Both the position numbers and the translations under genes were made by a program. A model generated the notes under the pieces. It made no database searches. It saw nothing but the letters and a program-made list of their open reading frames with translations, and was not told the origin of the DNA. Positions 10,416-49,698 of a DNA stretch of 64,000 nt are shown here, in pieces; position 1 is the first letter of the stretch, and the number at the start of each line of letters is the position of its first letter. The DNA lies in NCBI GenBank assembly GCA_018303125.1, contig JAGVYS010000003.1, forward strand, positions 637 through 64,636, read 5' to 3'. The DNA comes from Candidatus Woesearchaeota archaeon. Lineage in GTDB: Archaea; Nanobdellota; Nanobdellia; Woesearchaeales; WJIZ01.

Positions 10416-11186
10416 ATGGGTTTCAGGGAAACAGCTATAAGGGCTGCCAAGGAAGCAGGCAAGATTCATCTTAAGTATTTCAGGAAAAAATTTGAGATAA
10501 GATATAAGGCATACAAGCATAATAGGGTAACTATCGCAGATACGGAAGCAGAGAAAAAGATTGTTTCAGAAATAAGGAAAGAGTACCCTTCGCATAATAT
10601 CCTGGCAGAAGAGGCAGAATATCCAAGGACAGGCTCAGAATACCTCTGGGTGATAGACCCTCTTGACGGCACGAACAATTTCAGCAAGGGCATTCCTGTT
10701 TTTTGCGTTTCAATAGCGCTTGCTAAAGATAATGAGCTGATTCTCGGTGTTATCTATGACCCGACAAGAAATGAGCTTTTTGTTGCTGAGAAGGGCAAAG
10801 GCGCATTCCTGAACGGCAAAAGAATAAAGGTTTCAGGAAGCTCACAGCTGCATGACAGCATTCTTCTGACAGGTTTTTACTATGACAGGGGAAAGCCAAT
10901 GTTCTCTACGCTTGCAAGCATGCAGGAATTTTTCCTGAAGGATGTAATAGGCATAAGGTGCACAGGCAGCGCAGCCCTTGATCTCTGCAGCGTAGCTTCC
11001 GGTAGGGTAGATGGCTTCTGGGAATTCAAGCTTAACGCATGGGACTTTGCTGCCGGAAAGCTTCTTGTGGAAGAAGCAAATGGAAAGGTTACCGGCAGGA
11101 AAGGGGAAGGAATTGCAATTGGTGAGTCTTACATAGTCGCATCAAATAAAAAAATCCATGGCAAAATGCTTGATATTCTCAAATAA
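10416..11186 (+). CDS. suhB: inositol monophosphatase / fructose-1,6-bisphosphatase family protein
   Basis: WVIDPLDGTNNF metal-binding motif and the EE...DP.DGT architecture of the IMPase/FBPase family. Confidence 0.85.
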   Translation: MGFRETAIRAAKEAGKIHLKYFRKKFEIRYKAYKHNRVTIADTEAEKKIVSEIRKEYPSHNILAEEAEYPRTGSEYLWVIDPLDGTNNFSKGIPVFCVSIALAKDNELILGVIYDPTRNELFVAEKGKGAFLNGKRIKVSGSSQLHDSILLTGFYYDRGKPMFSTLASMQEFFLKDVIGIRCTGSAALDLCSVASGRVDGFWEFKLNAWDFAAGKLLVEEANGKVTGRKGEGIAIGESYIVASNKKIHGKMLDILK

Positions 11187-11189
11187 TAT

Positions 11190-11230
11190 GCTATTTATTT
11201 TCTATATTAAAAATAATTAAGGAAAAAATA
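11190..11230 (+). repeat. copy 1 of a ~40-bp AT-rich direct repeat (GCTATTTATTTTCTATATTAAAAATAATTAAGGAAAAAA)
   Basis: Near-identical copies at 11730-11770 and 12805-12845, all in the same orientation. Confidence 0.85.
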
Positions 11231-11710: not shown

Positions 11711-11729
11711 GTATTTATATTTATTGTGC

Positions 11730-11770
11730 TGCTATTTACTTTCTATATTGAAAATAATTAAGGAAAAAAA
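11730..11770 (+). repeat. copy 2 of the ~40-bp direct repeat
   Basis: GCTATTTACTTTCTATATTGAAAATAATTAAGGAAAAAAA; lies between the toxin-antitoxin pair and the nucleotidyltransferase/HEPN-like pair. Confidence 0.85.
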
Positions 11771-12789: not shown

Positions 12790-12804
12790 GTTGTACATTT
12801 TATT

Positions 12805-12845
12805 GCTATTTTCTTTCTATATTGAAAATAATTAAGGAAAAAAAT
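12805..12845 (+). repeat. copy 3 of the ~40-bp direct repeat
   Basis: GCTATTTTCTTTCTATATTGAAAATAATTAAGGAAAAAAA; sits at the junction with the GC-rich block. Confidence 0.85.
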
Positions 12846-12918: not shown

Positions 12919-13284
12919 TTAGGTGGCGCTTTCGTCCTTAACTAAGCGAATTTCTTCGACTTCCGGAGATGGCGCTGTGTCATCCTGCCAAGTAGCAATG
13001 CAGCCTGCCTCTGCAAATAGAGTAATCCTGCACTCCTCCCCTGTAGCCTTAAACCCGTGCCACACCTCTGCAGGGATAACTAAGACCTGTCCAGCCATAA
13101 TCTTTTCATTCGTTCCGCTCTCTTTAAGGAGATTACATGTTCCTTTCTGCACGGCGAATATTTTGACGCCGTTGTTCTTATGCAGCTCTATCCTCTGCTC
13201 AGGAGTGAGAGTTATGACCTTTACATCAAACCCAGTAAGGCGTGATAACATCTCTGAAACGATTTTCGTTAGTTTGAAACTCAT
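12919..13284 (-). CDS. cupin-domain protein
   Basis: The two-His/Glu cupin region (...GQVLVIPAEVWHGFKATGEE...); GC-rich, first gene of the compositionally distinct block. Confidence 0.6.
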   Translation of the reverse strand: MSFKLTKIVSEMLSRLTGFDVKVITLTPEQRIELHKNNGVKIFAVQKGTCNLLKESGTNEKIMAGQVLVIPAEVWHGFKATGEECRITLFAEAGCIATWQDDTAPSPEVEEIRLVKDESAT

Positions 13285-13561
13285 AAGTACCTCGTTAGGT
13301 TAATCAGCCAGTAACACAAGGTATTCTGGCCAATCGTTTAATGTTGTTGAGCTCATTCCTCCTTGTCCGCCTGTCTTTTTGCCTTTCGGCAAGCATTTTC
13401 AGCCTTTTTCGGCGTGGTGGTTTTTTGAGCCTTTTGTGATTACCATTTCTTTTCCATCTCTCTTTTTTTTCGTGATTTTTCATTGCTTTTTTGTATCCGA
13501 CCCGCACAAGGATGCTACCTCACTGGATAGCAATTAATCCTTGCTGGGGCTGGAGAATTGG

Positions 13562-14464
13562 TTAGACGTCGCAGAGCTTGATTGCCTGTGCGAGTCCCTT
13601 CTTTGCGTCTCCTGTCGGGATGAACTCGTGGCCGACGAAGCCTTTGTAACCGACATCCACAAGGGCTCGCATCACCGCAGGGTAGCTAATCTCTTGTGCA
13701 TTTGGATCCAGTTCCCCTCTTCCCGGGCATCCCGCAGTGTGGACATGGCCAAGCAAGGCAGCGCATTGGCGTATGCGCCGGATGACATCTCCATGCATGA
13801 CTTGGACATGGTAGATGTCAAACAGTAACCGAACCCAAGGGGAATTTACATAGGTGACAATCTCGGCGCAGACAGCAAGATCGTTTCCCCAATATCCTGG
13901 GTGGCCTTTCATTGGGTGAGTGTTGTCACGCGTGTTCAGATGCTCCAAGCACACTACCACCTTTTTTTGCTCAGCGAGAGACACCAGTTTTTTCAAGCCA
14001 ACTACGCACGTTTTGATGCCTTCGGCGACACCGATTTCGTCACCAAGCGGTTCTGTCGGGGAAGTCTCGCTCCCATCGAACTTGCGTCCGTATCCAGTGA
14101 ACACCACCGTAGCCGGAAATCCAGCATCTCCAAGGGATTTGATGTTCTCACCGACCTTCGCGATGAGCGCTTCATGGTTCGCACGGTCGTTCCACCCGCG
14201 CACGAAAGGAGGCTCTTTGTCCTTGATGGCAACAGGCAAACCAATGGCGCAGATCAAGCCATGCTTCTCGAGCACAGGAAAATCCGCAGGCGAAACCAGT
14301 TCTACGCTCTTTGCCCCAAGTCGCTTTGCGTTCTGGCAGAGCTCATCAAGGGTCATTTTTCCATCCCCGGTGAAGCACCACCCAGCAACTGAGTGGTTTA
14401 TCCTGTCTTTGAGTTTTGTTTTTTTATTCATGATGTTTAATGATTTGATTTTTCTCCCAAGCAC
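13562..14464 (-). CDS. xylose-isomerase-like TIM-barrel sugar-phosphate isomerase/epimerase (hydroxypyruvate-isomerase-like)
   Basis: 300-aa TIM-barrel pattern (VCLEHLN, HVHTAGCPGRGELD...GHEFIP); GC ~55-58%. The start could instead be the internal Met at 14431. Confidence 0.7.
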   Translation of the reverse strand: MLGRKIKSLNIMNKKTKLKDRINHSVAGWCFTGDGKMTLDELCQNAKRLGAKSVELVSPADFPVLEKHGLICAIGLPVAIKDKEPPFVRGWNDRANHEALIAKVGENIKSLGDAGFPATVVFTGYGRKFDGSETSPTEPLGDEIGVAEGIKTCVVGLKKLVSLAEQKKVVVCLEHLNTRDNTHPMKGHPGYWGNDLAVCAEIVTYVNSPWVRLLFDIYHVQVMHGDVIRRIRQCAALLGHVHTAGCPGRGELDPNAQEISYPAVMRALVDVGYKGFVGHEFIPTGDAKKGLAQAIKLCDV

Positions 14465-14855
14465 CTTAGCTATTGATGCCTGAGTCTTGGAAAGCCCAAA
14501 CTGATTTGTCCAAGCTATCCGCTTGCCCTCACGCGAATGAGAACAAGTGAGTTGTTAGCAACTCATGGCAACGCCCACTCATGCAGACTTGGGCGTTGTT
14601 GATGAACTGCTTTTGGGTTACCAGCCCGAATAGGTAATATATCTATTGAAACTCTTTTACGAGAATTTTCTGTTGCATTTCTGACATTTTACTTCTGTTG
14701 TGCCTTCCGAGTCACCTTTTAGAGAGACCACAAGGAATTGCGCAGTCAAGCAGCAATCGCACCTGCCGTCTCCCGAAAGGATGTGAATAGTACCATTTCC
14801 ACAGATAAGAATTGGACTAGGTTTTTCGTTCATAACCTCTCCTTTGATACACAGG

Positions 14856-16313
14856 TTATTGTTTTCCGAGACTCTTTCTTATGGCTGTCCAGCCGTCGAA
14901 TCTTTCAACGACCTGAGTGGGAATCCAAGAGGGTTTGATGGGCTTCAGCCTGCAGAGATGCTCCTGAATTTCCCCTACTCCTCTCTTAGTTGCGCTGGCA
15001 AGTGCGGCAATGAGCGCACCCTTGGCACAATTGAAGCCGCTGCCTTCTGCCTTGAGCACCTCTAATTTTCTGCCATTCGCCAGTTGGTATATCAAGCCCT
15101 GGATGATGGAAGAGTTAGCCAAGTCACCTGTAAGGCAGACTTTGGTGATGCCTGCGTCCAGCATAGGGATAGCCCTCTCCCACATCCCGAAGGTAATGGA
15201 CTGAAGGACGCTGATTGCCCAGTCGTTGAGTGCTGCATCCGAAGGCGCGTTGTGGACAGTGAACCCAGTATTAGTGGGCAAAAACCGCTCGAGAAGGGTA
15301 TCATCCAGATAGAAGAATGGCTTGCCACTCATTGCTAGCCTGTCGAGCGTCTTGTCCACATTATCATTGGATTTAGTTTTTGCCTTGATAGCGACTCGCA
15401 TGCACCCCTTGAAGGATGTCCACGCCAAGCCACTGTTGACAAGGATAGTGAGCAGGAAGACCTTGCCGAAGTCGTCGAAACGGTGATACTGGCCATCATG
15501 CGTCCACGAGTCATTGGTTGCAGTGCCAGTTCCTGACGAGCCAAAAGATAGGGTTACGGCATCATTCGGAGAGCCAAGCCCTGTTTTGCCGGAATGGTTG
15601 TCTGCCAGAGGAGAGTGATAAACGCATTGGCTTCCCAATCCAAGTGATCCTGCAAATTCCGTGTTGCAGTTTCCAACAACATTTCCCGTAGCCACCACTT
15701 CTGGAATGATTTCGGGGTTTAGGCCTAGCGCCCTAAAGACCTCTACAGCCACTTTCCCATCCCTGGTGAGGATGTTATTGCACATTCCGTCTGACCTGCT
15801 GAGCACCAACTTGCCTGTCAGCAGATACCCAAGATAGTCCGCAAGAGTGCATATCCATCTGACTTTTTTCCAGACATCCGGCATTTTTTTCGAGAACCAG
15901 TATGCCTTTGCCAGGATCAAGCCAGAATAGACATCGTTTCCTGTAATCCCCCTGATATCTGCTTTTCCCTTAATCTCATCAACCATGTCGGCAGCACGTT
16001 CATCACACCAGAGGACTGCCCCAGCATGCACAGGTGCATAATCGACGTCCAAGAGAACAAGGGAATGTTGAAACTGTCCAACGCACAGGTGTGTTACTGC
16101 CTTGGCTTTTTCCCCAAGAATGCCACGAAGAGTCTCAGCCAATTTTGAGATGTCAAATTCATGTCGCTTCTCAGGGAGGTTTCCCACTTTAGGCGTTGCG
16201 ATTGAAGCGCCATTTGTGAGACCGGTTGTGCTGTCATAGAAGACAGCTGCACAGGATGTTGTGCCGAAATCTATCCCGGCAACAACTCCACTTACATTTA
16301 TTTTCTTTTTCAT
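14856..16313 (-). CDS. FGGY-family carbohydrate kinase (xylulokinase/rhamnulokinase-like)
   Basis: N-terminal VVAGIDFGTTSCAAVFYD (the DxGTT ASKHA motif), 485 aa. Confidence 0.8.
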   Translation of the reverse strand: MKKKINVSGVVAGIDFGTTSCAAVFYDSTTGLTNGASIATPKVGNLPEKRHEFDISKLAETLRGILGEKAKAVTHLCVGQFQHSLVLLDVDYAPVHAGAVLWCDERAADMVDEIKGKADIRGITGNDVYSGLILAKAYWFSKKMPDVWKKVRWICTLADYLGYLLTGKLVLSRSDGMCNNILTRDGKVAVEVFRALGLNPEIIPEVVATGNVVGNCNTEFAGSLGLGSQCVYHSPLADNHSGKTGLGSPNDAVTLSFGSSGTGTATNDSWTHDGQYHRFDDFGKVFLLTILVNSGLAWTSFKGCMRVAIKAKTKSNDNVDKTLDRLAMSGKPFFYLDDTLLERFLPTNTGFTVHNAPSDAALNDWAISVLQSITFGMWERAIPMLDAGITKVCLTGDLANSSIIQGLIYQLANGRKLEVLKAEGSGFNCAKGALIAALASATKRGVGEIQEHLCRLKPIKPSWIPTQVVERFDGWTAIRKSLGKQ

Positions 16314-16413
16314 TTTTATTTTATTTGTTTAAACTGAAGTCCAATCCCTTCCCAGAGGAAAATCTCCCCAGAAGAAATTCCAATGGAAATGGAAAGGGCT
16401 TGGAGGTAATGAT

Positions 16414-17601
16414 TCAATTGATGCTGGAGATGTCCACTTTGGCGCCGCCCTGCTCTGCACTCAACAAGGATGCTTGCAGAACACGTTGAGTGTGCATTGT
16501 GGACTGGATCGTTGCAAAAGTGTCCGTATGCAATGGTTTCTGTCCAGCCACTTTGAGGAGGAATTCCAGCAGCAGGAAGATGAAGGTGTGCTCATACCCG
16601 ATGTTGTGTCCCTCTGGCCAGCAATTACTCACGTAGGGGTGACCCTTTTGAGAAACGTCGATTGTTTTCCAGCCTCGTGTCAGCTTGTTCTCGGTGTAGT
16701 CCACCCAATGCAATTCAGTGAGGCTTTCGAGACTCCATGTCAATCTCCCTTTGGTGCCGTCAATCTCGATGAGATTATCGTTGTTGCTTCCAGCGGACGT
16801 TCGTGTTGCCTCGAACGTGGCAATGAGACCCTTCTTCGATCGGCCATTGAACAACGAGATGTCATCGACATCGCTCGCAAGCGTCTTTGGGACATCTGCT
16901 GATTTTTCGTTCCATTCAGGGTTTGGTCGTTGCTGCCAGACAGTTTGCGTGTAGCCACCGCTCACCGACTCCAACTCGTCCTGACAGAGCAACACGAACA
17001 GGTCGATGATGTGCGCATTGAGATCACCATGCGCACCAGATCCGCAGATGTCTTTCAAGAACCGCCACACCCTTGGGCAACTTTCGTCACCCCATTGCTG
17101 GAGATATTTAGCGCGGAAGCGCAGGATTTTCCCAATCAATGTGATGAACTGCAACAGGGCGAATACCACTGCAGGGGTAAAGCGGTAATTGTGCCAGACC
17201 GCATTATGCACTCCTTTATCGGAGGCAGTTTTCGCTGCCTGAACCATCCGGCTAGCCCCTTGCAGGGTGTTTGAGAGGGGCTTCTCTGTCAATGTGTGCT
17301 TTCCTACCTCCAAAGCACTCACAGCGATGTCTGCGTGGCTGTCGTTGGAGGTTGCAACGTCCACCAGATGAATTTCAGCGTTGTCGAAGACATACTTCGG
17401 ATCGGTTGTCCAATTCTGCCATCCCTGTTCTCTAGCGAACTTTTCAACCGCATCTTCTCTTCGTCCCACCACCGTGTGGAGGACTACTTCGAATGGCGTT
17501 TCTTCTGGGAAAAAATACCCGACTTGCCGAAGCGCATTACTATGCGCCCGTCCCATAAAACCGTGACCATACATGGCCACATTTAGTTTAGGTTTACTCA
17601 T
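16414..17601 (-). CDS. Gfo/Idh/MocA-family NAD(P)-dependent oxidoreductase
   Basis: N-terminal Rossmann region (LNVAMYGHGFMGRAHSNAL) plus a C-terminal alpha/beta domain, 395 aa. Confidence 0.75.
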   Translation of the reverse strand: MSKPKLNVAMYGHGFMGRAHSNALRQVGYFFPEETPFEVVLHTVVGRREDAVEKFAREQGWQNWTTDPKYVFDNAEIHLVDVATSNDSHADIAVSALEVGKHTLTEKPLSNTLQGASRMVQAAKTASDKGVHNAVWHNYRFTPAVVFALLQFITLIGKILRFRAKYLQQWGDESCPRVWRFLKDICGSGAHGDLNAHIIDLFVLLCQDELESVSGGYTQTVWQQRPNPEWNEKSADVPKTLASDVDDISLFNGRSKKGLIATFEATRTSAGSNNDNLIEIDGTKGRLTWSLESLTELHWVDYTENKLTRGWKTIDVSQKGHPYVSNCWPEGHNIGYEHTFIFLLLEFLLKVAGQKPLHTDTFATIQSTMHTQRVLQASLLSAEQGGAKVDISSIN

Positions 17602-17956
17602 GGATTAGTTGTCTTTCTTCCCGGAATTGTTTTTTCTGAGAAGCCCATCACGTGTTTGGGCCTTAATTGCTTTCCAAGATGTTCCGGGTTGCCATCAAGA
17701 AAAGCAATCATATCCTCCTTCAAACAGGAAGGAGAAATTTCAGCATAGCTGCTGAAGGCAGCACACTCCAATGAAGCAAGTGGGCTGTTATTCAACATCT
17801 AATTGCCAGCCATGGGACGCACTCACAGCCTGTAAGTGCACGACCATCCCAAAACAATATGGTCTATCCCATGCTGGCAAAGTTAATGCTCGCCATATTC
17901 ATCCCTTTGCCTTATGGCAGCGTTTGGCTTAGGGAATCCTATGGCTGGCCGATTGT

Positions 17957-19042
17957 TCAGTTATTCTTGGCCATGGCCTCTTGATGTGAGATACCAGAAG
18001 TGAAGAGGATGTTGCTTCTGGCATGGCGTCCTGCGACCACGGCGGCGTTATCTTCGTCTTTGTCACTTGTTAAATGCAACGCTAGCATTTTTCCGTCCTC
18101 GTGCTCAAGCGCAACTTCATCGAAACTGAACTCTCCTTCTCTGAGAGCGACCTGGACGTCTCGATAATCTCCGTCACTCCAATGCAGAGAGATGTACTCG
18201 TCACCCCTTCTTCCACTCGGGTCGTCCAAGTGATGAGGAGAGTGTGTCGAACGAACACCGCCGTGCTGGCACTTCGCACCCTTTAGGTGTTCAGCATCGA
18301 TTGACCCGGGCGCTTCCTCGTTGATGAACCGTACACCATCGCCATTCAGCATGCCCTGTTTGATGAAATGAGAGTGGTCATAGAGGTACCCAAACCCATC
18401 ATCTGCCACAGCTTTGTGCAACTCAACTGCACTGTAGGGTTCCCACGCAGATTCTCCCTTATGAATTTCCAACCTGGCCTTCTTGATTCCGTGGGCCTTG
18501 AAGATACCAACAGCTTGCCGAATGCGGCCAGCTTCCCAATCCAAGCGAGACTTCCGTTCATCATCTGGCAGACCAGGGAACTCACGAAGTGAATCTTCGT
18601 AGATGGACGAGCCGCAGAACCAATTGATCTTGGTGATTCCAGCGGCCTGACAGCCAGCGGCGATGAGCTGGATTTCATCCATGGTAGCAGCCTGAATGGC
18701 TTGGGCATCAGGCTTTCCATTGGCCTCTTTCCACATGTGGACAGGCAGAAATTGCTTGAAGCCACTGTGAATCGATGTCGCATTCAGGCACATCGTGATA
18801 GGGTGTACGCTGACGCTGAGAACAGCAAGCTCGCCAACAGTTCCTTTCCATTCGTCTAGGCATTCCTTTCCACTCCTCTGGCCATTACCATTGACGAAAT
18901 GGTGGTATGGGAAGTGATCCCGTCCAGGTTGGATGCCATCAAAAACCAAGTTGCCGTCCGGCATCTTTGTTCGCCTGAGCTTGCTAACTAACTCAGCGAG
19001 AGTCCATGCAGCGAACTGCAATGATACTAGTGTGAATTTCAT
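17957..19042 (-). CDS. xylose-isomerase-like TIM-barrel protein (putative), possibly secreted
   Basis: 361 aa, GC-rich, hydrophobic N-terminus (MKFTLVSLQFAAWTLA); resembles sugar-phosphate isomerase/epimerase family proteins. Confidence 0.5.
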   Translation of the reverse strand: MKFTLVSLQFAAWTLAELVSKLRRTKMPDGNLVFDGIQPGRDHFPYHHFVNGNGQRSGKECLDEWKGTVGELAVLSVSVHPITMCLNATSIHSGFKQFLPVHMWKEANGKPDAQAIQAATMDEIQLIAAGCQAAGITKINWFCGSSIYEDSLREFPGLPDDERKSRLDWEAGRIRQAVGIFKAHGIKKARLEIHKGESAWEPYSAVELHKAVADDGFGYLYDHSHFIKQGMLNGDGVRFINEEAPGSIDAEHLKGAKCQHGGVRSTHSPHHLDDPSGRRGDEYISLHWSDGDYRDVQVALREGEFSFDEVALEHEDGKMLALHLTSDKDEDNAAVVAGRHARSNILFTSGISHQEAMAKNN

Positions 19043-19425
19043 AGTTTTGCTTTCCTTCTAGACAATATTGCAGACAACCTTTAGCCTTTTTCCTTTTTTA
19101 GCTTTAGTTGCCCCTACAAACTCTTTTCAGAGAACCGCCAGTTGTCTCTTCAGGCAGTTTTTGATCCACTCCCACATGCATAATGGGACTGGTAATTTTT
19201 CCGAGTGATTTCTCGAATTTTGCGAGTTTATTCTCGACGCCTTCAAACAAAGACGATTTTATCCATCTCATTCGAGACAGACTTTTTCAGTGTGTAACCA
19301 CTGAAGGCAGCCCTCAGATAATAGAGGCCAAGTAGGCATACTTTCTAAGGGCTGTTGTTCGGGGGTTAATTTAGTTACTTCTCCGAGCACCATTTCTGGT
19401 GAGTGGACTTATTATCGGATGTGGA

Positions 19426-20568
19426 TCAGGCAGCAACCTTCCACATTGCCTCGATGTTGGTGATGGAGAATCTGGCGTAGCCGATCGGATCCGCCCCAAA
19501 ATGGTGCAGATCATGTTCGGCGAACACCGTTTCACCATCCCATTGCCGCAAGATTTTGACAGCTTTTGCCAGATCCTCGGTGATCGTTGGTGAACCATCA
19601 CCTACTGCGAGGTCCCAATCCATCAGGACGGGCACATCAGCGGCGTGGACTTCTTTGCCGAGCAGTTGCTCCAGATTGACTGGCAGCATCTGACCTGAGT
19701 TGACATGCACGAACCCATCGAACAGACCTGCCTCATTGGTTCGCCTGGTGCCGTCCTCGACAGTTATGCCAGATGCCAACAGATGAGCCCATTCGTTATT
19801 GAGCCACAGACCCTTCCAGCCAAGCTCCTTGTTAACCTCGTTGCAGAACTTGATTGCCAACGCCAGCGTCGGGATGATATCGAGGACAGGGTCTCCAGGT
19901 TTGAACTCAATGTGCATCTTCCGTTCATGGCCTGTTTCGGTCTTCACCCGGCGCAGGACATTGACGATTCCGTCTCTTAGTTGACCCCACTTCTTCGATT
20001 TTGGAATCAATTCATTGGAAACCATGAGGTCCTTAGGGATGTTTTTGATGGGATTCCCATCTCCTGCCGGCCAGATGATGGTTTTTCCCTCTCCAAGCCC
20101 CTTCTCCTCGAACTCCAGTGCCAATGACACGGCCTCCACATGAAGATCCTCCGCCATCTGCCGACGATTGGCGTCAGGATGGAAGAACGCACCGAGCTCC
20201 GTCCCTGGATAGCCAAATGCAGGCGCAGTGAACGCCAACACTTTCGGGAAACGCCCAGAACGGATTCCCTTGACTAGGTTATCCTTGCCGATCGCGCCGG
20301 GCTTGTCAATGAGCTCGGAATACTGTGGTTGAGATGTTCTGATTTCCAATCCGATATGGAAGCTTGATCTCAGTTCGAGGCCAAGCTCTTCTCCAAGCGA
20401 CTTCACCTCCTTCAGACGGTCACTTACCTTGACGTAACCAGCTTTTGGATCACCTCCGCCGAACTTGAAGTTTGCAGGTCGTGGGTTTACGACCCATGAG
20501 GGCACTGAATGAATGATTTGCTTTGACATTGCTTTATCTCCTAAAGGAGCTCTTTTCCAGCCCTTCAT
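19426..20568 (-). CDS. xylose-isomerase / L-rhamnose-isomerase-like TIM-barrel sugar isomerase
   Basis: 380 aa; HIEFKPGDP resembles the xylose isomerase FAIEPKPNEP metal-site motif. Confidence 0.65.
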   Translation of the reverse strand: MKGWKRAPLGDKAMSKQIIHSVPSWVVNPRPANFKFGGGDPKAGYVKVSDRLKEVKSLGEELGLELRSSFHIGLEIRTSQPQYSELIDKPGAIGKDNLVKGIRSGRFPKVLAFTAPAFGYPGTELGAFFHPDANRRQMAEDLHVEAVSLALEFEEKGLGEGKTIIWPAGDGNPIKNIPKDLMVSNELIPKSKKWGQLRDGIVNVLRRVKTETGHERKMHIEFKPGDPVLDIIPTLALAIKFCNEVNKELGWKGLWLNNEWAHLLASGITVEDGTRRTNEAGLFDGFVHVNSGQMLPVNLEQLLGKEVHAADVPVLMDWDLAVGDGSPTITEDLAKAVKILRQWDGETVFAEHDLHHFGADPIGYARFSITNIEAMWKVAA

Positions 20569-20848
20569 ATGTTAAGGCCGTTCTGATCCAGCTCCACATA
20601 AGACCAGAGAGATTTATCGATAACCTCTTTAGAGGGAATGATGCCAAATCCCACAAAGCATCATTTTTTCACAGCAGCTCTCGAGTTGAGGCTGTCTTAG
20701 AAGAACATTCCAATGTTCTTCCGTTGTGCTTACAAGCACACGTCCTCCCACCTTGGTAGATAGGAGGAAGCGTGACTGCAAACGAAACAAAGGTAGCTCT
20801 CCGAACTAACTTTCAAAGAGAAAATCCTTTGTTTTACGTTACCGCCAA

Positions 20849-21847
20849 TCACGTAGCCAGCGGGAACTTCCTGTTGAACTTCCGCATAGCTTTGACGCAA
20901 GTCTCCGATTGCTCACGGGCATTTGGATTGAAGCACAAATCCATTGCTCGCCAGTCATAACCCTCGGGCAGACCAGTGAAGAACTCTTCGGCAGCCGGAA
21001 ACAACTTGTCGAATTTCAGAATGCCTGCGCCGAATTCATCGTGAGTAGAGGTTCCTGGACCATTCGGAGACTCTCGGTGTAGTTCCCCCTTGGTGTCAAT
21101 CCAGTGGACGTGCTTCACAAACGGACCGATTTCACGCATGAACCCAATCTGTTCCTCGCCTTTTGTGTTGGTGTGATCTTTTGCGAAGGTGTCGATTTCG
21201 CCGATCTGTTCTGCACCCATGCAACCTACGGTGTGGCCGTGACAAGTGTCATACAGTGAACCAACATTTTTGACGCCGGCATCTGAGAGGGCCTTGTGAA
21301 ACCTCACCACATCACGTGGTTTATTGATACCAAACATTGGCTCAAACTCAATGACGATTGTGAGGCCTTCGTTTCCGGCAATTTCCCCAAAGCGCTTGAA
21401 TCTTTTGACATAGACCTCAATTGCACCTTCGACACCAATACCTTGCGGGCCATAGATACGGCTCGGAGGATCGATGAAGTCCATGCGCATACGCGGCGTA
21501 TTTAATCCGCCTTTGCCGCACCATTTGGCGTTTTTGATCACTGCGCTCTCGAGACGGTCAGTGTCGCTGAAGAAGCTGAGATCCTGATTCCAGAAATCAC
21601 CGGCGACCCCGCTTATTGTCATGCCGTGTTCTTCCAGCAAGGCCAAGAACAAAGCAATGGATGTAGTGCTTCCGCAGTTATTCGGATCTGGGTGTGGACC
21701 CTTCCCAAAGAGTTCAACCCCGTCGAACCCGAGCCCGTGCTTTTTCCCGAGGAACTTGATTATGGAAACAATGTCCATTTGTTGGGTCTTCAAGAACAAA
21801 AAGGCCCATAGCCCCATAGATATGCGATAGTTAGGCTTTTTAGCCAT
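20849..21847 (-). CDS. sugar-phosphate isomerase/epimerase (xylose-isomerase-like TIM barrel)
   Basis: 332 aa with the GxELF, IEFEP and HWID features of the family. Confidence 0.65.
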   Translation of the reverse strand: MAKKPNYRISMGLWAFLFLKTQQMDIVSIIKFLGKKHGLGFDGVELFGKGPHPDPNNCGSTTSIALFLALLEEHGMTISGVAGDFWNQDLSFFSDTDRLESAVIKNAKWCGKGGLNTPRMRMDFIDPPSRIYGPQGIGVEGAIEVYVKRFKRFGEIAGNEGLTIVIEFEPMFGINKPRDVVRFHKALSDAGVKNVGSLYDTCHGHTVGCMGAEQIGEIDTFAKDHTNTKGEEQIGFMREIGPFVKHVHWIDTKGELHRESPNGPGTSTHDEFGAGILKFDKLFPAAEEFFTGLPEGYDWRAMDLCFNPNAREQSETCVKAMRKFNRKFPLAT

Positions 21848-22284
21848 AGTTTACCTCATTTATTACGTTGTTTTTTTCTTTCCCAGATTTTTAGTTATTA
21901 ACTCATTATGTACTTGAGCCTTTCATTGCCCTGACCCAGGAAGTTAAACAGGGCAAGAAATTGAATTTGGAGCCGCCGCCTAAACAGTTAACCCCCAAAG
22001 GTTAATCAATGCACATATGTCAGGGGCGGCTCCAAAGCTGGTGAGGGGCGAGCACAAAACACCTCATTGAACGGGGTGCTTTAGTAACCTATGTGCCCGC
22101 CGCCTCGAAATTAGTGGAGTCACAACCAAGCCTTACTCATAAGTTCCCGTGTATGGTTCAGCCTAGCTATGACCCCAAAAAAGAGTGAGGAGCCGCGTGG
22201 CTTAGCCGCCTTCATCATTCTTCCTTTGGGGAACTGGTAAGAAGAACGAATTCTGCTCTAATGGAGAGCACGGCTCCTCGAAAA

Positions 22285-22362
22285 TGGTGCACCCGGCGAG
22301 GCTCGAACTCGCAACCAGCTCGCTTAAAAGGCGGCTGCTCTTCTAAATTGAGCTACGGGCGC
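22285..22362 (-). tRNA. bacterial-type tRNA-Lys(UUU)-like gene with encoded CCA and a 1-nt bulge in the anticodon stem (possible pseudo-tRNA)
   Basis: Reverse complement: GCGCCCG TA GCTC AATTTAGAA GAGC A GCCGC CTTTTAA GCG(A)GC TGGTT GCGAG TTCGAGC CTCGC CGGGTGC A CCA. Acceptor stem, D-arm and T-arm pair cleanly; the variable loop TGGTT resembles bacterial tRNA-Lys; an extra A disrupts the 3' anticodon stem. GC-rich, unlike the host tRNAs. Confidence 0.6.
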
Positions 22363-23828
22363 ATTAAAAATGGAGGGATGTAGGTCTAATAGACGCACTT
22401 CAAAAGCAATTCGTGCTTGAGCAACGCAATTGCCTTTTTAGCTCGCGGATGAGTACATCCCTCAAAAGGGCAAAGGAAAAACAGGGGAGATACAGGCGAC
22501 AAGTGCCTTCAGAGGAATCTGGGCTCCGACCTCCAGATAACTCCTTCGCTTTACCAGCACAACCCCCAGAAAGCCAAAAAGTGGAACCGTAGTGTGAGGC
22601 TGGTCAAAGAAGCATACTGGGGATATGCTCTTATTCCATTAACACCACGGCTCCACAGAAAGTAAATTGCCGGCCGCAGCTTATTTTCCAAAATAAGCGT
22701 GGATTTTTATGGTGTGGAACCATGAAAGTATCCACTTCTGCGACCGACAAAATGAAGGTAGCCCACCTGTCCACGTTTCTTATCCCCATGTTAAAGATAT
22801 CCTCGTCGGACAGTGGGCTACTAGAAAACAGCTAGCCAATATCCCCCAGTTACGCCGATCTCGGAGACGGCTGCAAAAGTAAAACCCGCATGACTTTTTC
22901 CCTCTCCTTGGTTGCCCCTAGCACCTGTCATGCGGGTTGTGGATTGATGGCAGCCTGGCCAGCCCTTACACCAAACCAAGGATATGGCTTTACCTCGATT
23001 TTTAAGAGCCGGCACAGGCTGCAAATTGACAGTCTGCATGAGTTTGCTGAGCCCTCTTCCTGAGCCTCATGCAGACTGTAGGTAGCCAAGCCATGTCTCC
23101 CTTTTGCATCGCCCATGATATCCTCCTATTTGGAGAAATGGCCGGCTGCCATAAATTCAAATTGTAGCCTAAATGATCCTGCCTCCTTTCCAAAAAGCAG
23201 CATATCACCCTACCATTTAGGCTACGTGGAAGCAACACCACTAGCGCCCGCGCAGAGAACTTCCCTTGCAAGGGCAGTGCTGCCGAATTCTAGAACCTCC
23301 TTAAGAGTTCTGAGACTATTAATACCCGCCCCCTACTGCCACAACAGAATCTAGGGTGTTCCTAGTTGTCTCCTTTACACCCTTTCTGTTTGTGATATGC
23401 ACTGCTGAAAGCAGTACCCATATGACGATTATTATGGTCACAATTTCTTCTCCAAGGGTTGATTCTTGAAGCTATGCCTCCCACCCGTTAAAAAAGCACA
23501 GCCATGAACCTCCAGCTCCTTCCATGAGAAATTTTGGAGAAGTAGGAAATTCATTTGTTCTGAAAGAAAGCTACAGCTACACAAATTGATAGTTTTTGCT
23601 TCCTGAAAAACAGCAACTTGCCATTTTTCGCCCTTTTCCGCTTCTATGCTCTAAAAATCAAGGTTGCGTGGAAACACGTTTCTTTTCGAAAACAACCTTT
23701 TGTTTTTGAGCTAGCGTATCAGAATTCCCATTCCATAAAATTCCCTATATTAAGTGGAATCACAGGATGAAAATCCCGAAGGGTAGGTTATCAAACCATC
23801 AAGGCGATAGCCAAATCAAAAAATAAAT

Positions 23829-25637
23829 TTATGAACATGATATCAAGTCAAGCAGCTTCTTTCCTTTCTCTGTTAGGAAAATTACCTTTCTTATTCCGTT
23901 GCTGCTCTTCTCAGTCTCAACCCCTATTAGCTCCATTACGATGAAGTCATTTCTATATTGGTTGCATTTCCTTATGGAAATATCGCGAAGCTTTGAATAA
24001 AGCTCTGTTGTTGCCATCTTTCCTTTTTTCAGCTTCTTCAGGAAATCAAGGCTTCCGTCATTGTATTCTATGTAATTCTTTATGTTTTCTGTCTTGCGGG
24101 CATCCTCAATCTCCTTTTTCATCCTCTCATCATAGGGCAGGTCGGAGTAATCCTCCAAAGTATGCACTCCTGATGCATTTACAGTTGCTTTCAGCTTTGC
24201 AACCTCTATGCTCAATTTTCTTACCTTTACAGAATCATTGAATATCTTCAGCCTCTTGCCATCCTTCAGCTTTGACTCCATTCTTGCCTTTATGGCCTCA
24301 TCTTCTACATGGACATCCGAACGAGCAAGCGGCACCTTCACAAGGAAAGGCAGGTAATGCCTTTCTGAAAGCCTTACTATTGCCTGCCCGACAGGTATCA
24401 TGGAGAAATACTTGCTGTTTTCCCTTATCTGCATCAGCCTTGATATGGTCTCTACATCATTCGGCAAAATCTGCTGGAAAGCAATTGTTGTTGCGGAATT
24501 TCCGATAACAGTTTCTGATAATTTGGAGATATGCTGGTCAAGGCATATCATGCCTATGCCATATTCCCTTATTTCACGGTAAATCATGTCCGTTACAGAC
24601 TCATTGAGAAAATTTGTCCTGTTCCTTAGGAATATGTTATGCGCCTCATCCACCATTATCGCGCTGCTGAAACCAGAGGAAGATGGAGAGGATTTTTTCA
24701 TCTTGTATATGTAAGCAAGCAGGAATTCGCAGAAAAACTTCTTTTCAGGATTGTTCAGGCTGTGAAGCTCGAACAGCACTCTTTTGGAAAGCAACTCATC
24801 TATGCTTACCTCATACTGGCCACGGTAATTTATCGTTTCACCGAAATGTCCGAAAGTAAGAACATGCGCTATCCTTATGGCAGATGTCACCCATTCTGCC
24901 TCCCTTCCATGCTTAAGCCTCTGCCCCTCTGCCCTGCCCTCAAGCCTGTCCATTATGTTATACCATGTCGGGTAATTATCAGAGCCCTTATACACTCCAA
25001 AGTCACGGAAGGCCTCGTTAAGGACATCAGAAAGCAGCTTATGCACACCATAGCTCGCAAAGAAGCTTTCGGTTATCAAGTCACAAAGCATGTTAAGCCA
25101 TTCTTTTGGGTCAATCCCTTTCGGAGGCCTGTTTATGTTTATCCTGAAAAGATTCGCAATTTTTGAGTTTCCGACGGTAAAGCACAGCATTTCCTCATCC
25201 TCAAGCAAAAGCGGCCTGAAGCTCTTCTTCCAGTCAAAAATCCAGAAATTCTTCCCCTTCTCCATGAACTGCCTCGCTATTACGAAGCCAAGATTGGTTT
25301 TTCCTGAGCCTGACATGCCTGAAATGCATACGTGCCTTATCCATTCTTTCTCCCTGAGCCCGAATGGGTAGAACTCCTTGTCTGCATAAGTAACAGTTCC
25401 AAGTCTGTATTCTCCAGCAACAGCGCTTTTCTCAGGTGGCTCAAGCAGGACTTTTTCAGAAAGAAGGTGAGTATTGAGATGTTTTTCATAAAGAATCTTG
25501 AGGGCATGTTCCATCTCCAGCCTTTCATCATTGCTCTGGGAAAGGGCAAACTTTAGGTAAATCCTGTCTATTTTCTCGCCCAATACAGGACGCAGCCTTC
25601 TGCATATCTCTTCAGCGGTAAGTTCTCTCATATTCAC
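23829..25637 (-). CDS. HerA/FtsK-like P-loop ATPase (DUF87-type) with a C-terminal winged-helix region
   Basis: Walker A GMSGSGKTNL and Walker B IMVDEAHNIF; 602 aa; low GC, host-like. Confidence 0.7.
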   Translation of the reverse strand: MNMRELTAEEICRRLRPVLGEKIDRIYLKFALSQSNDERLEMEHALKILYEKHLNTHLLSEKVLLEPPEKSAVAGEYRLGTVTYADKEFYPFGLREKEWIRHVCISGMSGSGKTNLGFVIARQFMEKGKNFWIFDWKKSFRPLLLEDEEMLCFTVGNSKIANLFRININRPPKGIDPKEWLNMLCDLITESFFASYGVHKLLSDVLNEAFRDFGVYKGSDNYPTWYNIMDRLEGRAEGQRLKHGREAEWVTSAIRIAHVLTFGHFGETINYRGQYEVSIDELLSKRVLFELHSLNNPEKKFFCEFLLAYIYKMKKSSPSSSGFSSAIMVDEAHNIFLRNRTNFLNESVTDMIYREIREYGIGMICLDQHISKLSETVIGNSATTIAFQQILPNDVETISRLMQIRENSKYFSMIPVGQAIVRLSERHYLPFLVKVPLARSDVHVEDEAIKARMESKLKDGKRLKIFNDSVKVRKLSIEVAKLKATVNASGVHTLEDYSDLPYDERMKKEIEDARKTENIKNYIEYNDGSLDFLKKLKKGKMATTELYSKLRDISIRKCNQYRNDFIVMELIGVETEKSSNGIRKVIFLTEKGKKLLDLISCS

Positions 25638-26059
25638 TTAGAAAGTATGTCGCCCAGCAATGAAGCCCTGCTTTCCTTCTCCCTCATTTCCTGGATAATC
25701 TCTCTCATCTCTTTTTTAAGCAGTGCTATGTCCCTGAAGCAATTCAGTTTTTCCTGTACCTTGATCTCCTCTGCGTCTATGAGCTTCTTCCTGAACTCAA
25801 CAATCGCCCTCTGCAATTCCGCTGATGCATAATTATCAGGCGGCATCATGTTGCTTATGGCGTTTTTCATCTTCTCAATGTCAGAAAGCATCTCAGAATG
25901 AAGCTTTTCCCTTACCTTTATCTGCTCACTTATCTCATCAACAGCTTCCCTTAAGGAAGCCATCTTTGTTTCAGATATGCTGTCAAGGAGCATTTCTGCG
26001 GAATTGCCTTTATTCTCAAGCTCATCCAGCATATTTTTGAATAGTTTTGACTCTTCCAA
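25634..26059 (-). CDS. coiled-coil protein, co-operonic partner of the HerA-like ATPase
   Basis: 141 aa rich in E/K/L heptads; 4-nt overlap with the ATPase start. Confidence 0.5.
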   Translation of the reverse strand: MEESKLFKNMLDELENKGNSAEMLLDSISETKMASLREAVDEISEQIKVREKLHSEMLSDIEKMKNAISNMMPPDNYASAELQRAIVEFRKKLIDAEEIKVQEKLNCFRDIALLKKEMREIIQEMREKESRASLLGDILSK

Positions 26060-33763: not shown

Positions 33764-36493
33764 TCACTGGGATGGCAAAGTCAAGTTATAAAAAGCAAAT
33801 AGCTGTTCTGCAAGAGGCTCAAGTATCTCACTAGGAAAGCAGAATCTAAGTTCTGTGAACTGTCTGCGGAATTTGGTAATTTCACCAGCAACATTTTTTC
33901 CTTTCAATGCTTCGGCAGTATAGCCGGCAAGTGTTTCAAAGTCTCCATTGTTCATTCCCCATCTTGTCATCTCCTGTGTGCCCGTCCTTATGCACGAGCC
34001 ATCTGAAAAGCCAGCATCCCTGTCAATGCCTTGGGAACTTGTGATGATGTTATTATCTTCAAGCACTCTTGCAAAATAAGGCCCCCGATTTTTTCCCACA
34101 TTGATAATCACCTGATGTGATTGTGTATAGCCAACACTTGGGTTGCCTTCTACTTTTACACCCTCTTCAATTAATCCCCTGGCATAAGCTTTCGCATTGC
34201 TTAGTACCAGTGGCTGGTATCCTGCACGGAAAGCAAGCATCTCCTGTGCTGCAACATAGGCCCCCAAAAGAGTTCCGGGGTGGTGGTTGCTGCTGCTTCC
34301 TGGGAAAGCGCCCTTCTCAACAGCGCTCCATAATGGGCTTAGGTAGTCTCCTTCAACTATATTGCTTGCGACAATTCCCCTTTGTGTACCAAAGAAAGTT
34401 TTGTGTATTGAGCCGGTTACAAAATCTATTCCTTCATTAAATGGCTCCTGGAAATTCGAGCCAAAAAGCCCCATCACATGTGAGCCGTCATACATCACAA
34501 CAGGCCTGTGCTTAAGCCCTGAAACTATCTCTATTATCTGTCTCACAGGCTCAGGGCCAAGAGTCATGCTTTTTCCAAGTATTATCAGGTCCAGCCATGA
34601 TATGGAAGCTAGTTCATGTATCAGGTCAGAGGTTTTATCGAGGTCAATCTCGAAAGGATTGTCTTTTCTAACAGGGAACGCATCAATGCAGTATCTTCCT
34701 GATGCAGGATCTCTTGCAATGAAATTCTTAAGCTCGCCTCTGAGCTGTGCGCTGAGATGCCCCCCCATCATCAGGTCGTGAGCAAGTGCCCTAAGCCTTC
34801 TTGCCTCGCCTTTCTCTCCTCGGTTGACATATTCAGTAAGAGCTTTGTAAAGCACAAGGTTGGCTTGCTGCCCTGAAATTGGCCTTGCCTCCACATTTCT
34901 GCATCCAAGATATTCCCTCATTGATGCTTCAAATTTAGCTTGGACTTCAAGTATAAAATCAGTACCCTGATAGTATGCTACTGGCTGGTTGCGGTCAAAT
35001 GCCAGAATCCTTGAATTCTCTGCATATCTTCCAGGGTCGGCAATTGAAAGTAGCGCAGCATGAGGTGAAAGCATGCTCTCGGAAGCTATGAGATTGAATG
35101 TCTCAGTGTGCCTTCTATTTCTCTCATTGGCTGCTTGTGTGATGACCGTTTTCACGGCTTCTAGCCTATCAGAAGAGGATAACATATGATAATTTCTATG
35201 TACCTCAGGATGTATTACAGGCCTTACATAAGGTGCAGCCACTCTCATGTTAGGCACACCCACAACAGCAGGCACTTTATTGTTCCTTATCTCAATATCC
35301 ACATTTACACCATAATCCCTTGGGTCTATTGCAGGGTCAACAAGGGCAAGCCCTATTGCACGCGTATTATTATTTTCGGTAATTTCAGAAATCATCCCTC
35401 TTGTAGTTATTTCCCAGAAAGGCACACATGTACCGCTTGTAACGTATCCTATATGGCTACTGCCATTCCATACTTTGTATCCATTCCTGGGCGGATTTCT
35501 TCCAGGGCCATCTTTGTTTTGGTTTAAGATAGCAATAGGCATTAGCGCATAAGGCACTGCTCTCTCTTCCATGCCCTTAAAAACACCCCTCTTCCAGCCC
35601 TGCACCTCGAGATACTGTTCCCAGAGTGCTTCCCTCCCGATAAAATCGCCTTTGCTGTTCTCGAACCTGGTTGCCATCCTGCCTATAGGGACAGAAAAAA
35701 CAGGAATATCTTTTCCGTCAGGGCCTTTTCCGAATTCATGCCCATATAACGGCAACGCTGATTCAAGCCTTAATGTGTCTCTTGCGCCAAGCCCTACAGC
35801 AACAAAGCCATGTTGTTCTCCTATTTCATAAATCATATCCCAGAGACTTGCTGCCTTTGCCCTGTCCATAAAAAGCTCGAAGCATACAGGCTCTCCTGTA
35901 TAGCCTGTCCTTGCGATTACTAGCTCAGTTCCTTCAAAACTTGCAGTTGATACCATGTTCCTTTTGTTTTCAGGCAACTCTCCTGAGGATACAATCTGCT
36001 CAAGGACTCGCTGGGAATTCGGCCCCTGGAGTGCAAACATCTGCACTTCCTCACTCCTGTCAACTAGGCCAACATCAAATTTTTTTGCATTCTCTCTTAG
36101 CCAGCCGAGGTCTTTTGCCCTATTGGATGCATTGACTACAAGAAGAAATTGCTTTTTGTCAAGCCTGTAAAGATATGCATCATCAATAGCATTGCCCTTC
36201 TCATCAGGTATTACAGTGTATTGGGCTTCTCCCTTGCGGAGAGCTAGTGCATTGTTTGTAAGAACATGATTAAGAAAAGGAACAGCACCTTCTCCGGAAA
36301 CAAAAAACCTTCCCATGTGCGAGATGTCAAACAATCCCGCATTTTTTCTTGTTGAGCGGTGCTCGAATAAAGTTCCTGTGCCGCCCCTTTGTTCATTGTA
36401 AGAAATAGGCATTTCAAAGCCGCCAAAAGGAGACATAGTGGCTCTGGCCTTGTGCCATTCATGCAAGACAGTTTCGGAAAGACCTTCTGGCAT
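33764..36493 (-). CDS. apparent fusion protein: N-terminal aminomethyltransferase (GcvT-like folate-binding) plus C-terminal serine hydroxymethyltransferase-like PLP domain
   Basis: One 909-aa ORF. N-terminus: FGGFEMPISY, LFDISHMG (GcvT signatures). C-terminus: FNLIASESMLSPHAALLS (SHMT LIASEN-like), GSIHKTFFGTQRGIV (SHMT PLP-lysine region THKT..GPRGG). Confidence 0.65.
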   Translation of the reverse strand: MPEGLSETVLHEWHKARATMSPFGGFEMPISYNEQRGGTGTLFEHRSTRKNAGLFDISHMGRFFVSGEGAVPFLNHVLTNNALALRKGEAQYTVIPDEKGNAIDDAYLYRLDKKQFLLVVNASNRAKDLGWLRENAKKFDVGLVDRSEEVQMFALQGPNSQRVLEQIVSSGELPENKRNMVSTASFEGTELVIARTGYTGEPVCFELFMDRAKAASLWDMIYEIGEQHGFVAVGLGARDTLRLESALPLYGHEFGKGPDGKDIPVFSVPIGRMATRFENSKGDFIGREALWEQYLEVQGWKRGVFKGMEERAVPYALMPIAILNQNKDGPGRNPPRNGYKVWNGSSHIGYVTSGTCVPFWEITTRGMISEITENNNTRAIGLALVDPAIDPRDYGVNVDIEIRNNKVPAVVGVPNMRVAAPYVRPVIHPEVHRNYHMLSSSDRLEAVKTVITQAANERNRRHTETFNLIASESMLSPHAALLSIADPGRYAENSRILAFDRNQPVAYYQGTDFILEVQAKFEASMREYLGCRNVEARPISGQQANLVLYKALTEYVNRGEKGEARRLRALAHDLMMGGHLSAQLRGELKNFIARDPASGRYCIDAFPVRKDNPFEIDLDKTSDLIHELASISWLDLIILGKSMTLGPEPVRQIIEIVSGLKHRPVVMYDGSHVMGLFGSNFQEPFNEGIDFVTGSIHKTFFGTQRGIVASNIVEGDYLSPLWSAVEKGAFPGSSSNHHPGTLLGAYVAAQEMLAFRAGYQPLVLSNAKAYARGLIEEGVKVEGNPSVGYTQSHQVIINVGKNRGPYFARVLEDNNIITSSQGIDRDAGFSDGSCIRTGTQEMTRWGMNNGDFETLAGYTAEALKGKNVAGEITKFRRQFTELRFCFPSEILEPLAEQLFAFYNLTLPSQ

Positions 36494-45942: not shown

Positions 45943-45956
45943 TCTTATTCCTTTAC

Positions 45957-46041
45957 GGGCCGTACGAGATTCGAACTCGCGACCCCCTGATTGCTTCTGC
46001 CTTAAAAGTCAGGTGCTCTAGCCAGGCTGAGCTAACGGCCC
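45957..46041 (-). tRNA. tRNA-Lys(UUU) with an ~11-nt intron in the anticodon loop
   Basis: Reverse complement: GGGCCGT TA GCTC AGCCTGGCTA GAGC A CCTGA CTTTTA[AGGCAGAAGCA]A TCAGG GGGTC GCGAG TTCGAAT CTCGT ACGGCCC. Confidence 0.75.
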
Positions 46042-49657: not shown

Positions 49658-49698
49658 GTTGCGCTTTTTTCATTTCCACATTAAACTATGAAGGGAAT

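Follow-up and report, generated by a model that had tools for sequence, protein, structure and literature searches.

The window analysed here, a stretch of 64,000 nucleotides from a Candidatus Woesearchaeota archaeon (contig JAGVYS010000003.1, positions 637 to 64,636 of the forward strand), carries on its minus strand a tRNA-Lys(UUU)-like gene that folds into an almost perfect cloverleaf, shows three departures from a canonical elongator tRNA, is atypical in style for its archaeal host and lies inside a foreign, GC-rich block of about 10 kb. The element is most likely an orphan, island-borne non-canonical or pseudo-tRNA, a modest curiosity in itself, and the hairpin-rich RNA around it is odder. 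The reading we prefer, held tentatively and with slightly less than even confidence, is that of a real bacterial-style tRNA-Lys(UUU) gene which travelled as a passenger on foreign DNA and is now a pseudo-tRNA, impaired as a decoder. The gene and its landmarks are as follows.

22285..22362, minus strand: tRNA-Lys(UUU)-like gene with encoded CCA (ARAGORN, Rfam RF00005, sequence, in-silico deletion)
Landmarks within it, minus strand (sequence): G3 at 22360, A18 at 22344, UUU anticodon at 22328-22326, extra A at 22320, U70 at 22291, A73 at 22288, CCA at 22287-22285

Both tRNA scanners detect the gene with significant scores. ARAGORN calls a tRNA of 78 nt at 22285-22362 on the minus strand, and in its tRNA and tmRNA mode it calls a tRNA, not a tmRNA, in keeping with the complete anticodon arm. 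The Rfam family RF00005 matches 22288-22362 on the same strand over model positions 1-71 of 71 with 51.3 bits against a gathering threshold of 29 (E-value 4e-8 window-wide and 1.4e-9 locally), a score that falls within the range of genuine host tRNAs (57.0 and 43.8). The minus-strand sequence is GCGCCCGUAGCUCAAUUUAGAAGAGCAGCCGCCUUUUAAGCGAGCUGGUUGCGAGUUCGAGCCUCGCCGGGUGCACCA, and its parts read GCGCCCG UA GCUC AAUUUAGAA GAGC A GCCGC CUUUUAA GCG[A]GC UGGUU GCGAG UUCGAGC CUCGC CGGGUGC A CCA. The Infernal alignment gives a 7-bp acceptor stem, the D stem GCUC/GAGC, the variable loop UGGUU and the T arm GCGAG-UUCGAGC-CUCGC. All of the 21 stem pairs are intact, 20 of them Watson-Crick and the remaining one G3.U70, and according to the sequence and the alignment the tertiary nucleotides U8, A14, A21, A15:U48, G46, U33, A37, U54-U55-C56-G57-A58 and G53:C61 are kept. 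The 7-nt anticodon loop CUUUUAA is canonical and holds the UUU anticodon, the discriminator is A73, CCA is encoded and there is no intron. Thus the cloverleaf with encoded CCA, first proposed by a sequence-only reading of this DNA, is agreed upon by ARAGORN, Rfam and Infernal. When folded as plain RNA, the minimum-energy structure is an alternative rod (-33.3 kcal/mol against -28.6 for the cloverleaf), which is not unusual among genuine tRNAs.

Three features set the gene apart from a canonical elongator tRNA. The A at 22320 is an extra base inserted into the anticodon stem on its 3' side, where the strand reads GCG-A-GC opposite GCCGC in the Infernal alignment, and it interrupts the 5-bp stem. 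As the sequence stands, ARAGORN labels the gene Leu(UAA), from a shifted anticodon stem with two mismatches, and when A 22320 is deleted in silico the call becomes a clean tRNA-Lys(ttt). The single extra A noticed in the sequence-only reading is therefore borne out by both the insertion in the alignment and the deletion test. The extra A is what produces the artefactual Leu(UAA) label, because ARAGORN cannot model the bulge and slides the anticodon stem, and this makes the locus an annotation trap. The other two departures, A18 and G3.U70, are absent from the sequence-only reading. The D loop is 9 nt long (AAUUUAGAA) and has AG where G18G19 is carried by eight of the eight tRNAs in the comparison set (host tRNAs and six bacterial tRNA-Lys genes); G18 is near-universal in tRNAs. 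The third acceptor pair is G3.U70 (22360/22291), alongside A73, and the pair 2:71 is C-G. In Escherichia coli, alanylation by alanyl-tRNA synthetase (AlaRS) is supported by G2:C71. The identity of tRNA-Ala for AlaRS rests on G3:U70, and the anticodon is not read (PMC10543346).

The tRNA-like gene does not look like the tRNA genes of its host. The host is a member of Woesearchaeota (DPANN): in NCBI the window proteins bear the name Candidatus Woesearchaeota (locus tag J4401_01210), and the window holds split RpoA'/RpoB'' genes. CCA is encoded in none of the four complete host tRNA genes that were inspected in the window, and introns are found in the host tRNA-Lys, in the tRNA at 49698-49794 and in a tRNA-Asp. 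The comparator used is the following.

45956..46041, minus strand: host tRNA-Lys(UUU) with a 12-nt intron and G73, CCA not encoded (tRNA calls and sequence)

The host tRNA-Lys(UUU) shares with the tRNA-like gene the anticodon loop, the D stem and the 5' T-stem strand GCGAG. It differs in its 12-nt intron, G73, unencoded CCA and GG at 18/19, and its acceptor and anticodon stems are unrelated to those of the tRNA-like gene, so that the claimed difference from the host's intron-containing tRNA-Lys holds for the intron, residue 73, CCA status and the stems alike. Because the host tRNA genes have introns and encode no CCA, the tRNA-like gene is out of style for this genome. In tRNA-Lys, A73, a TGGT-type variable loop, an encoded CCA and the absence of introns are bacterial hallmarks, while archaeal tRNA-Lys carries G73; the UUU anticodon and A73 are identity elements for LysRS. 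With bacterial tRNA-Lys(UUU) of the E. coli lysT type the gene shares the cloverleaf, CUUUUAA, A73, U44-G45-G46-U47, A26, the encoded CCA and the lack of an intron, and it differs in the extra A, A18, G3.U70, the 9-nt D loop AAUUUAGAA and the archaeal residence. The best matches among bacterial, plasmid and phage tRNAs reach 75-82% identity and are spread over tRNA-Arg, tRNA-Thr and tRNA-Lys of phages and plasmids. No relative was found among these, and from the tRNA hallmarks the ancestry of the gene is probably bacterial.

The host tRNA genes themselves were partly overlooked by the scanners. An unannotated host tRNA-Asp(GUC) lies at about 46045-46164 on the minus strand, 3 nt upstream of the host tRNA-Lys, and has two introns, one of 18 nt at the canonical position 37/38 and one of 29 nt in the T arm. 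It was missed by ARAGORN and by the Rfam gathering scan, and splicing in silico yields a clean tRNA-Asp of 73 nt. Two adjacent host tRNA genes on the minus strand (49574-49657 and 49698-49794) were each detected by one tool only, ARAGORN reporting a long-variable-arm tRNA-Leu(CAG) and Rfam a tRNA that has both an intron and a long variable arm.

The block in which the tRNA-like gene lies, with its cluster and the host genes that bound the slot, can be described as follows.

About 13400..23300 (approximate), minus strand: foreign GC-rich block of a sugar-catabolism cluster and a non-coding region (GC/GC3 shift; missing in the relatives' slot)
20849..21847, minus strand: xylose-isomerase-like TIM barrel of 332 aa, first gene of the cluster (Pfam AP_endonuc_2, 7e-18)
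13562..20568, minus strand: rest of the cluster, with spacers of 277-391 nt (domain searches)
23829..25637, minus strand: host HerA/DUF87-type ATPase, slot boundary (861 homologues, named Woesearchaeota/Nanoarchaeota in NCBI; synteny)
10416..11186, plus strand: host inositol-monophosphatase gene, the other slot boundary (Pfam; synteny with L017)

Composition and synteny support the block as a lineage-specific foreign insertion. Its genes (13562-21847) have a GC content of 50-53% and a GC content at third codon positions (GC3) of 0.53-0.59, and the surrounding genes are at 40-45% GC. The non-coding DNA at 21900-23300 shares the composition of the block, and from there to the next gene GC falls to 36-42%, which places the tRNA-like gene about 1 kb inside the right edge of the block and not at the edge. 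Three related Woesearchaeota, with an ATPase 70-73% identical, have a gene order in common with the window: carbamoyl-phosphate synthase, CTP synthase, AIRC, SAICAR synthetase, inositol monophosphatase, a variable slot, the HerA/DUF87 ATPase, a 142-aa protein and adenylosuccinate lyase. In these relatives the slot holds about 3 kb of small open reading frames (ORFs) without DNA similarity to the 12.6 kb of the window, and no tRNA was found in the syntenic slot of the three with the same flanks. The foreign origin suspected for the GC-rich block is thus supported by the GC/GC3 shift and by its absence from the relatives' slot.

The slot and its border have features of their own. The HerA/DUF87 ATPase has a C-terminal winged-helix-like region and a coiled-coil partner of about 142 aa (23829-26059, minus strand; L017, L018 and L020). 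The pair is kept across Woesearchaeota and Nanoarchaeota, always with a variable stretch of small ORFs after it, and the place may be a hotspot for foreign DNA. Within the same variable slot as the foreign block, an AT-rich intergenic repeat of 48 nt occurs in three copies 83-100% identical (11182-11229, 11723-11770 and 12797-12844). The repeats bracket small genes with a match to the PADLOC candidate system PDC-M05, a nucleotidyltransferase (NTP_transf_2) and its partner, a pair that is toxin-antitoxin-like.

The first gene of the cluster, the 332-aa TIM barrel, starts 438 nt downstream of the tRNA-like gene and has a GAGGT Shine-Dalgarno-like motif upstream. Next come a 380-aa protein that matches xylose isomerase weakly, a TIM barrel of 361 aa, an oxidoreductase of the GFO/IDH/MocA type, a xylulokinase-like kinase of the FGGY family and a TIM barrel of 300 aa; in total the block encodes four xylose-isomerase-like TIM barrels. 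The oxidoreductase matches levoglucosan dehydrogenase best (2e-69, under the cutoff of the family), and judging from these similarities the cluster resembles catabolism of the 3-keto-sugar or anhydrosugar (levoglucosan) type. The 380-aa protein had no sequence match in PDB, and its single-sequence AlphaFold model was unusable (predicted local distance difference test, pLDDT, 35). A dedicated non-canonical tRNA for a tRNA-dependent enzyme of the operon was considered and rejected, the proteins being of sugar isomerase, dehydrogenase and kinase types.

The proteins do not lead to a donor. When 5.8 billion proteins were searched by word index, the only matches to the TIM barrel and to the FGGY kinase were these proteins themselves or a 99% variant, and an exhaustive HMMER search of 1.84 billion representatives gave 175 relatives of the 332-aa TIM barrel, the best non-self ones at 34-35% identity and the relatives having unrelated, tRNA-free neighbourhoods. 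Bacterial and Haloarcula enzymes alike share 37-41% identity with the oxidoreductase, and no block protein has a relative above about 35-41% identity. These identities point to no particular donor or donor domain, and the transfer was not a recent one from any sampled lineage. The only hint of the donor's domain is the bacterial flavour of the tRNA (A73, TGGT variable loop, CCA). Among the origins offered in the sequence-only reading, a donor-derived tRNA is the best, and the donor itself is what the divergent block proteins fail to provide.

The surroundings of the gene are remarkably structured, and both stretches of the non-coding region as well as the spacers of the cluster are listed here.

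21925..23300, minus strand: ORF-free structured stretch of 47-53% GC, a chain of long nested hairpins that holds the tRNA-like gene (folding z-scores; Pfam and Rfam scans)
23301..23828, minus strand: ORF-free structured stretch that separates the block from the ATPase gene, host-like at 36-42% GC (composition; folding)
13285-13561, 14465-14855, 17602-17956, 19043-19425 and 20569-20848, minus (sense) strand: structured cluster spacers (folding z-scores)

About 1.9 kb around the tRNA-like gene (21925-23830) has no ORFs longer than 90 aa and is structured on both strands, more strongly on the minus strand. Compared with shuffled controls, the folding z-scores of the ORF-free region range from -3.8 to -7.2 (four segments of 500 nt, both strands), and 22600-23150 reaches -8.6 on the minus and -6.5 on the plus strand. 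The long spacers within the cluster (277-391 nt) score -3.3 to -7.1 on the sense strand, and two of them are much weaker in antisense (-6.7 vs -0.7 and -4.5 vs -0.8). Coding controls from the block and the host stay between -1.5 and +1.3, and host intergenic controls in the window are flat (-1.3 to +0.9). The intergenic DNA of the relatives gives -0.4 to -4.0, and because it is moderately structured, part of the folding signal is a lineage trait. Several hairpins have perfect stems of 10-14 bp, and hairpins abut the tRNA-like gene on both sides. In the Rfam 15 scan (E<=1) of 21800-23900 and 13200-21900 only the tRNA was found, and no group II intron, GOLLD, ROOL or riboswitch. The 2-kb region had no similarity to plasmids, phages or viral contigs except for the tRNA itself. 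The possibility that the hairpins are copies of one repeat unit, like miniature inverted-repeat transposable elements or attC sites, was rejected, as no repeat family was found; the motif GTCTGCATGAG has 4 matches against 1.6 expected and is not significantly recurrent. The only polymorphism in the non-coding region, the single-nucleotide polymorphism (SNP) at 21973 (a C in the window but a T in contig L005), falls in an arm of a perfect 12-bp hairpin and keeps the pairing (G.U) only in a plus-strand transcript, which cautions against over-reading the RNA structure. The structured region could be a functional RNA, the intergenic style of the donor genome or a set of DNA-level palindromes.

Searches for relatives of the element gave little to compare. 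A strict 40-mer had no hits in 185,579 species genomes. A structure-aware pattern, with the Lys-type loops and the D stem fixed, the other stems free and six instead of five bases between the anticodon loop and UGGU, returned two genome loci and nine metagenome (JGI) loci. All 11 turned out to be normal tRNA-Lys genes of bacteria in which the variable loop has 6 nt, the anticodon loop has 8 nt or a sporadic indel occurs, and none shares the D loop or the acceptor stem of the element. Nor was an identical or similar archaeal sequence found, such as a canonical tRNA-Lys of close archaeal relatives, in these pattern scans, which need exact matches and did not return the organism's own genome (the lineage is missing from the collections). 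No related sequence was found in the genome, metagenome and viral collections, and the relatives' slot is empty of tRNA; conservation with compensatory changes was consequently not seen, and covariation says nothing on function because there is no related sequence. Five independent contigs carry the locus with 99.95-100% identity, and their three SNP positions are all outside the tRNA; a protein variant of 99% identity could not be traced to its locus.

The flanks of the gene hold two short motifs that could matter for its expression.

22384..22392, minus strand: weak TATA-like box TCTATTAGA, about 22-30 nt before the gene's first base (sequence against host tRNA upstream regions)
22281..22284, minus strand: TTTT run directly after CCA (sequence; putative role in termination)

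The box TCTATTAGA is a poor match to the clear TATA boxes upstream of host tRNA genes, and no sigma-70-like promoter was found upstream of the tRNA-like gene on the minus strand. The TTTT run could be a candidate weak archaeal termination signal, like the T-rich 3' flanks of host tRNA genes. Downstream of the structured region there are an AT-rich promoter-like stretch and a Shine-Dalgarno-like motif.

According to the reading that we tentatively prefer, a tRNA-Lys gene would have entered the Woesearchaeota genome with the sugar-catabolism block of about 10 kb from an unsampled, probably bacterial, donor, as a co-transferred passenger and not as the insertion target of the block. The bulged anticodon stem, A18, which would weaken the elbow between the D loop and the T loop, and G3.U70 would take it away from a working elongator, and the gene, redundant beside the host tRNA-Lys(UUU), would be an impaired decoder, not (or no longer) retained for translation. 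If transcribed, it would still fold as a tRNA and be excised by RNase P and 3' trimming. Pseudo-tRNA status comes out as the most likely one because the host already has a canonical tRNA-Lys(UUU) and the gene has three departures. Several points weigh against this. There are only three lesions, and the preservation of all 21 stem pairs and of nearly every tertiary position would also suit a gene under continued selection or one acquired only recently; one bulged nucleotide may sit outside the helix and be tolerated; and a T-run follows CCA as it does at host tRNA genes. The exceptionally structured DNA around the gene is not junk-like and hints at an RNA-level function of the whole region. Bacterial ancestry is argued from general tRNA hallmarks, no relative having been found, and the phage and plasmid collections used in BLAST hold essentially no archaeal tRNAs. 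The absence of homologues from exact-match scans that do not return the organism's own genome is weak evidence, and with copies 99.95-100% identical neither selection nor decay is measurable. The same intact features, i.e. the perfect stems, the canonical loop with U33 and A37, the intact T loop, A73, CCA and the 3' T-run, together with an Rfam score in the range of genuine host tRNAs, would suit a working extra tRNA-Lys(UUU) that is transcribed from its own weak promoter, processed and lysylated and reads AAA/AAG with the bulged A flipped out and tolerated. We regard this as unlikely: such a tRNA would be redundant with the host tRNA-Lys, it lacks G18, its anticodon stem is interrupted, it has A73 where archaeal and host tRNA-Lys have G73, the AAA codon usage of the block genes is not distinctive, and neither conservation nor a good TATA box was found. 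It is highly improbable that the gene is an alanine-accepting tRNA with a lysine anticodon, inserting alanine at lysine codons as deliberate or tolerated mistranslation. G3.U70 and A73 are present as this would require, and AlaRS identity is independent of the anticodon (PMC10543346). However, one C-to-T transition in a stem that has six G-C pairs hits 3:70 about once in six cases, so chance is adequate; the pair 2:71 is C-G and not the supporting G-C, misreading lysine as alanine would come at a high cost, efficient use by the ribosome is made less likely by the bulge and A18, and no conservation was found. An anti-defence tRNA-Lys(UUU), whose altered anticodon arm would escape an anticodon nuclease, is hardly credible here. 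No system of tRNAs evading anticodon nucleases is known in DPANN archaea. Although tRNA-Lys(UUU) is a classic target of anticodon nucleases which phage tRNAs evade (PMC10264068, PMC11555353), the known cases change the anticodon loop, which is canonical in this gene, and the block has no viral or defence context.

The remaining explanations concern the DNA around the gene. That the element is an integration target, or the remnant of a phage or another integrative element, is very unlikely, even though one end of the foreign block is close to it and the relatives differ in what the slot downstream of the ATPase holds. An integration-site remnant had been suggested in the sequence-only reading, and both of the checks run on the window for it came back empty: there is no second copy of either 33-nt tRNA half with up to three mismatches (none expected by chance), no integrase or other Pfam domain in the six-frame translations of 21848-23828, and no integrase among the block ORFs. 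No repeats frame the block, and the words shared by its two edges are at chance level. The tRNA is not of the host type, it lies about 1 kb inside the block, and the relatives have no tRNA at the empty site, and on these grounds the integration-site remnant was rejected. A phage-derived tRNA, also suggested in the sequence-only reading, fared no better. Four scans of viral contigs for the element (bulge pattern, D arm, T arm/acceptor) gave no match, the hairpins had no match in viral contigs either, the phage tRNA matches at 75-82% are generic, the block has no viral gene, and the PHROG hits are only the conserved host ATPase and its small partner. We also consider it rather unlikely that the cloverleaf belongs, as a tRNA-like module, to a larger structured RNA of about 1.4-1.9 kb on the minus strand, serving as a handle for RNase P and 3'-end processing or as a protein-binding element. 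The ORF-free setting, folding z-scores of -3.8 to -8.6, the hairpins directly on either side and the long block spacers that are structured preferentially on the same strand, with flat host intergenic controls, would fit such an RNA, and there are precedents in tRNA-Other (PMC3399842) and in GOLLD and ROOL (PMC5737381). On the other hand, with no homologue in the searched collections there is no covariation, no Rfam family matches, perfect palindromes of 10-14 bp fit DNA-level or young structures equally well, the relatives' intergenic DNA already scores -0.4 to -4.0, SNP 21973 pairs only on the plus strand, and the operon, having its own promoter-like stretch and Shine-Dalgarno-like motif downstream, needs no such leader. 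Going further, the cloverleaf could be a functional module (a handle for RNase P/CCA processing or for aminoacylation) of an undescribed RNA-rich island that travels with the sugar genes, which seems distinctly unlikely.

Elsewhere in the window, a 909-aa ORF at 33764-36493 on the minus strand holds GCV_T aminomethyltransferase and SHMT domains and is apparently a fusion of two enzymes of one-carbon metabolism.

It seems that the interest of the locus lies in several directions. A bacterial-style tRNA gene moved into a DPANN archaeon would be an uncommon and directly visible trace of cross-domain DNA flow, one that the block proteins do not show because they are too divergent. Levoglucosan or 3-keto-sugar catabolism would be an unexpected metabolic cargo in a DPANN archaeon. 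The combination of G3.U70 with a lysine anticodon would mistranslate if the tRNA were expressed and charged. The larger payoff, if any, would come from the island's non-coding RNA with its dense hairpins, for which no counterpart has been described. If the RNA-rich island were real, with an ornate RNA of about 1.4-1.9 kb and structured spacers, it would be an archaeal counterpart of the pairing of tRNAs with the GOLLD and ROOL giant RNAs.

Some known systems resemble the element in part. With tRNA-Ala and with engineered mistranslating tRNAs that carry G3:U70 (PMC10543346) it shares G3.U70 and A73 on a non-alanine anticodon; unlike in them, the pair 2:71 is C-G and the rest of the body is Lys-like, and alanylation is hypothetical, a chance transition being enough to explain the pair. 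In Bacillus cereus, the pseudo-tRNA tRNA-Other lies beside a genomic island; in vitro it accepts lysine only poorly, and a role as a tRNA-like element within larger RNAs has been proposed for it (PMC3399842). It has a Trp anticodon, resides in a bacterium, is expressed, has phenotypes and flanks its island, whereas the gene described here has UUU and lies inside the island. The two have in common the non-canonical tRNA shape, the association with a foreign island and the loss of conserved tRNA features. Compared with GOLLD and ROOL (PMC5737381, PMC12286853), the region has no match to their models, no prophage context and no homologues, and its host is archaeal, but it shares with them the arrangement of a tRNA gene beside or in a long structured non-coding region on foreign DNA.

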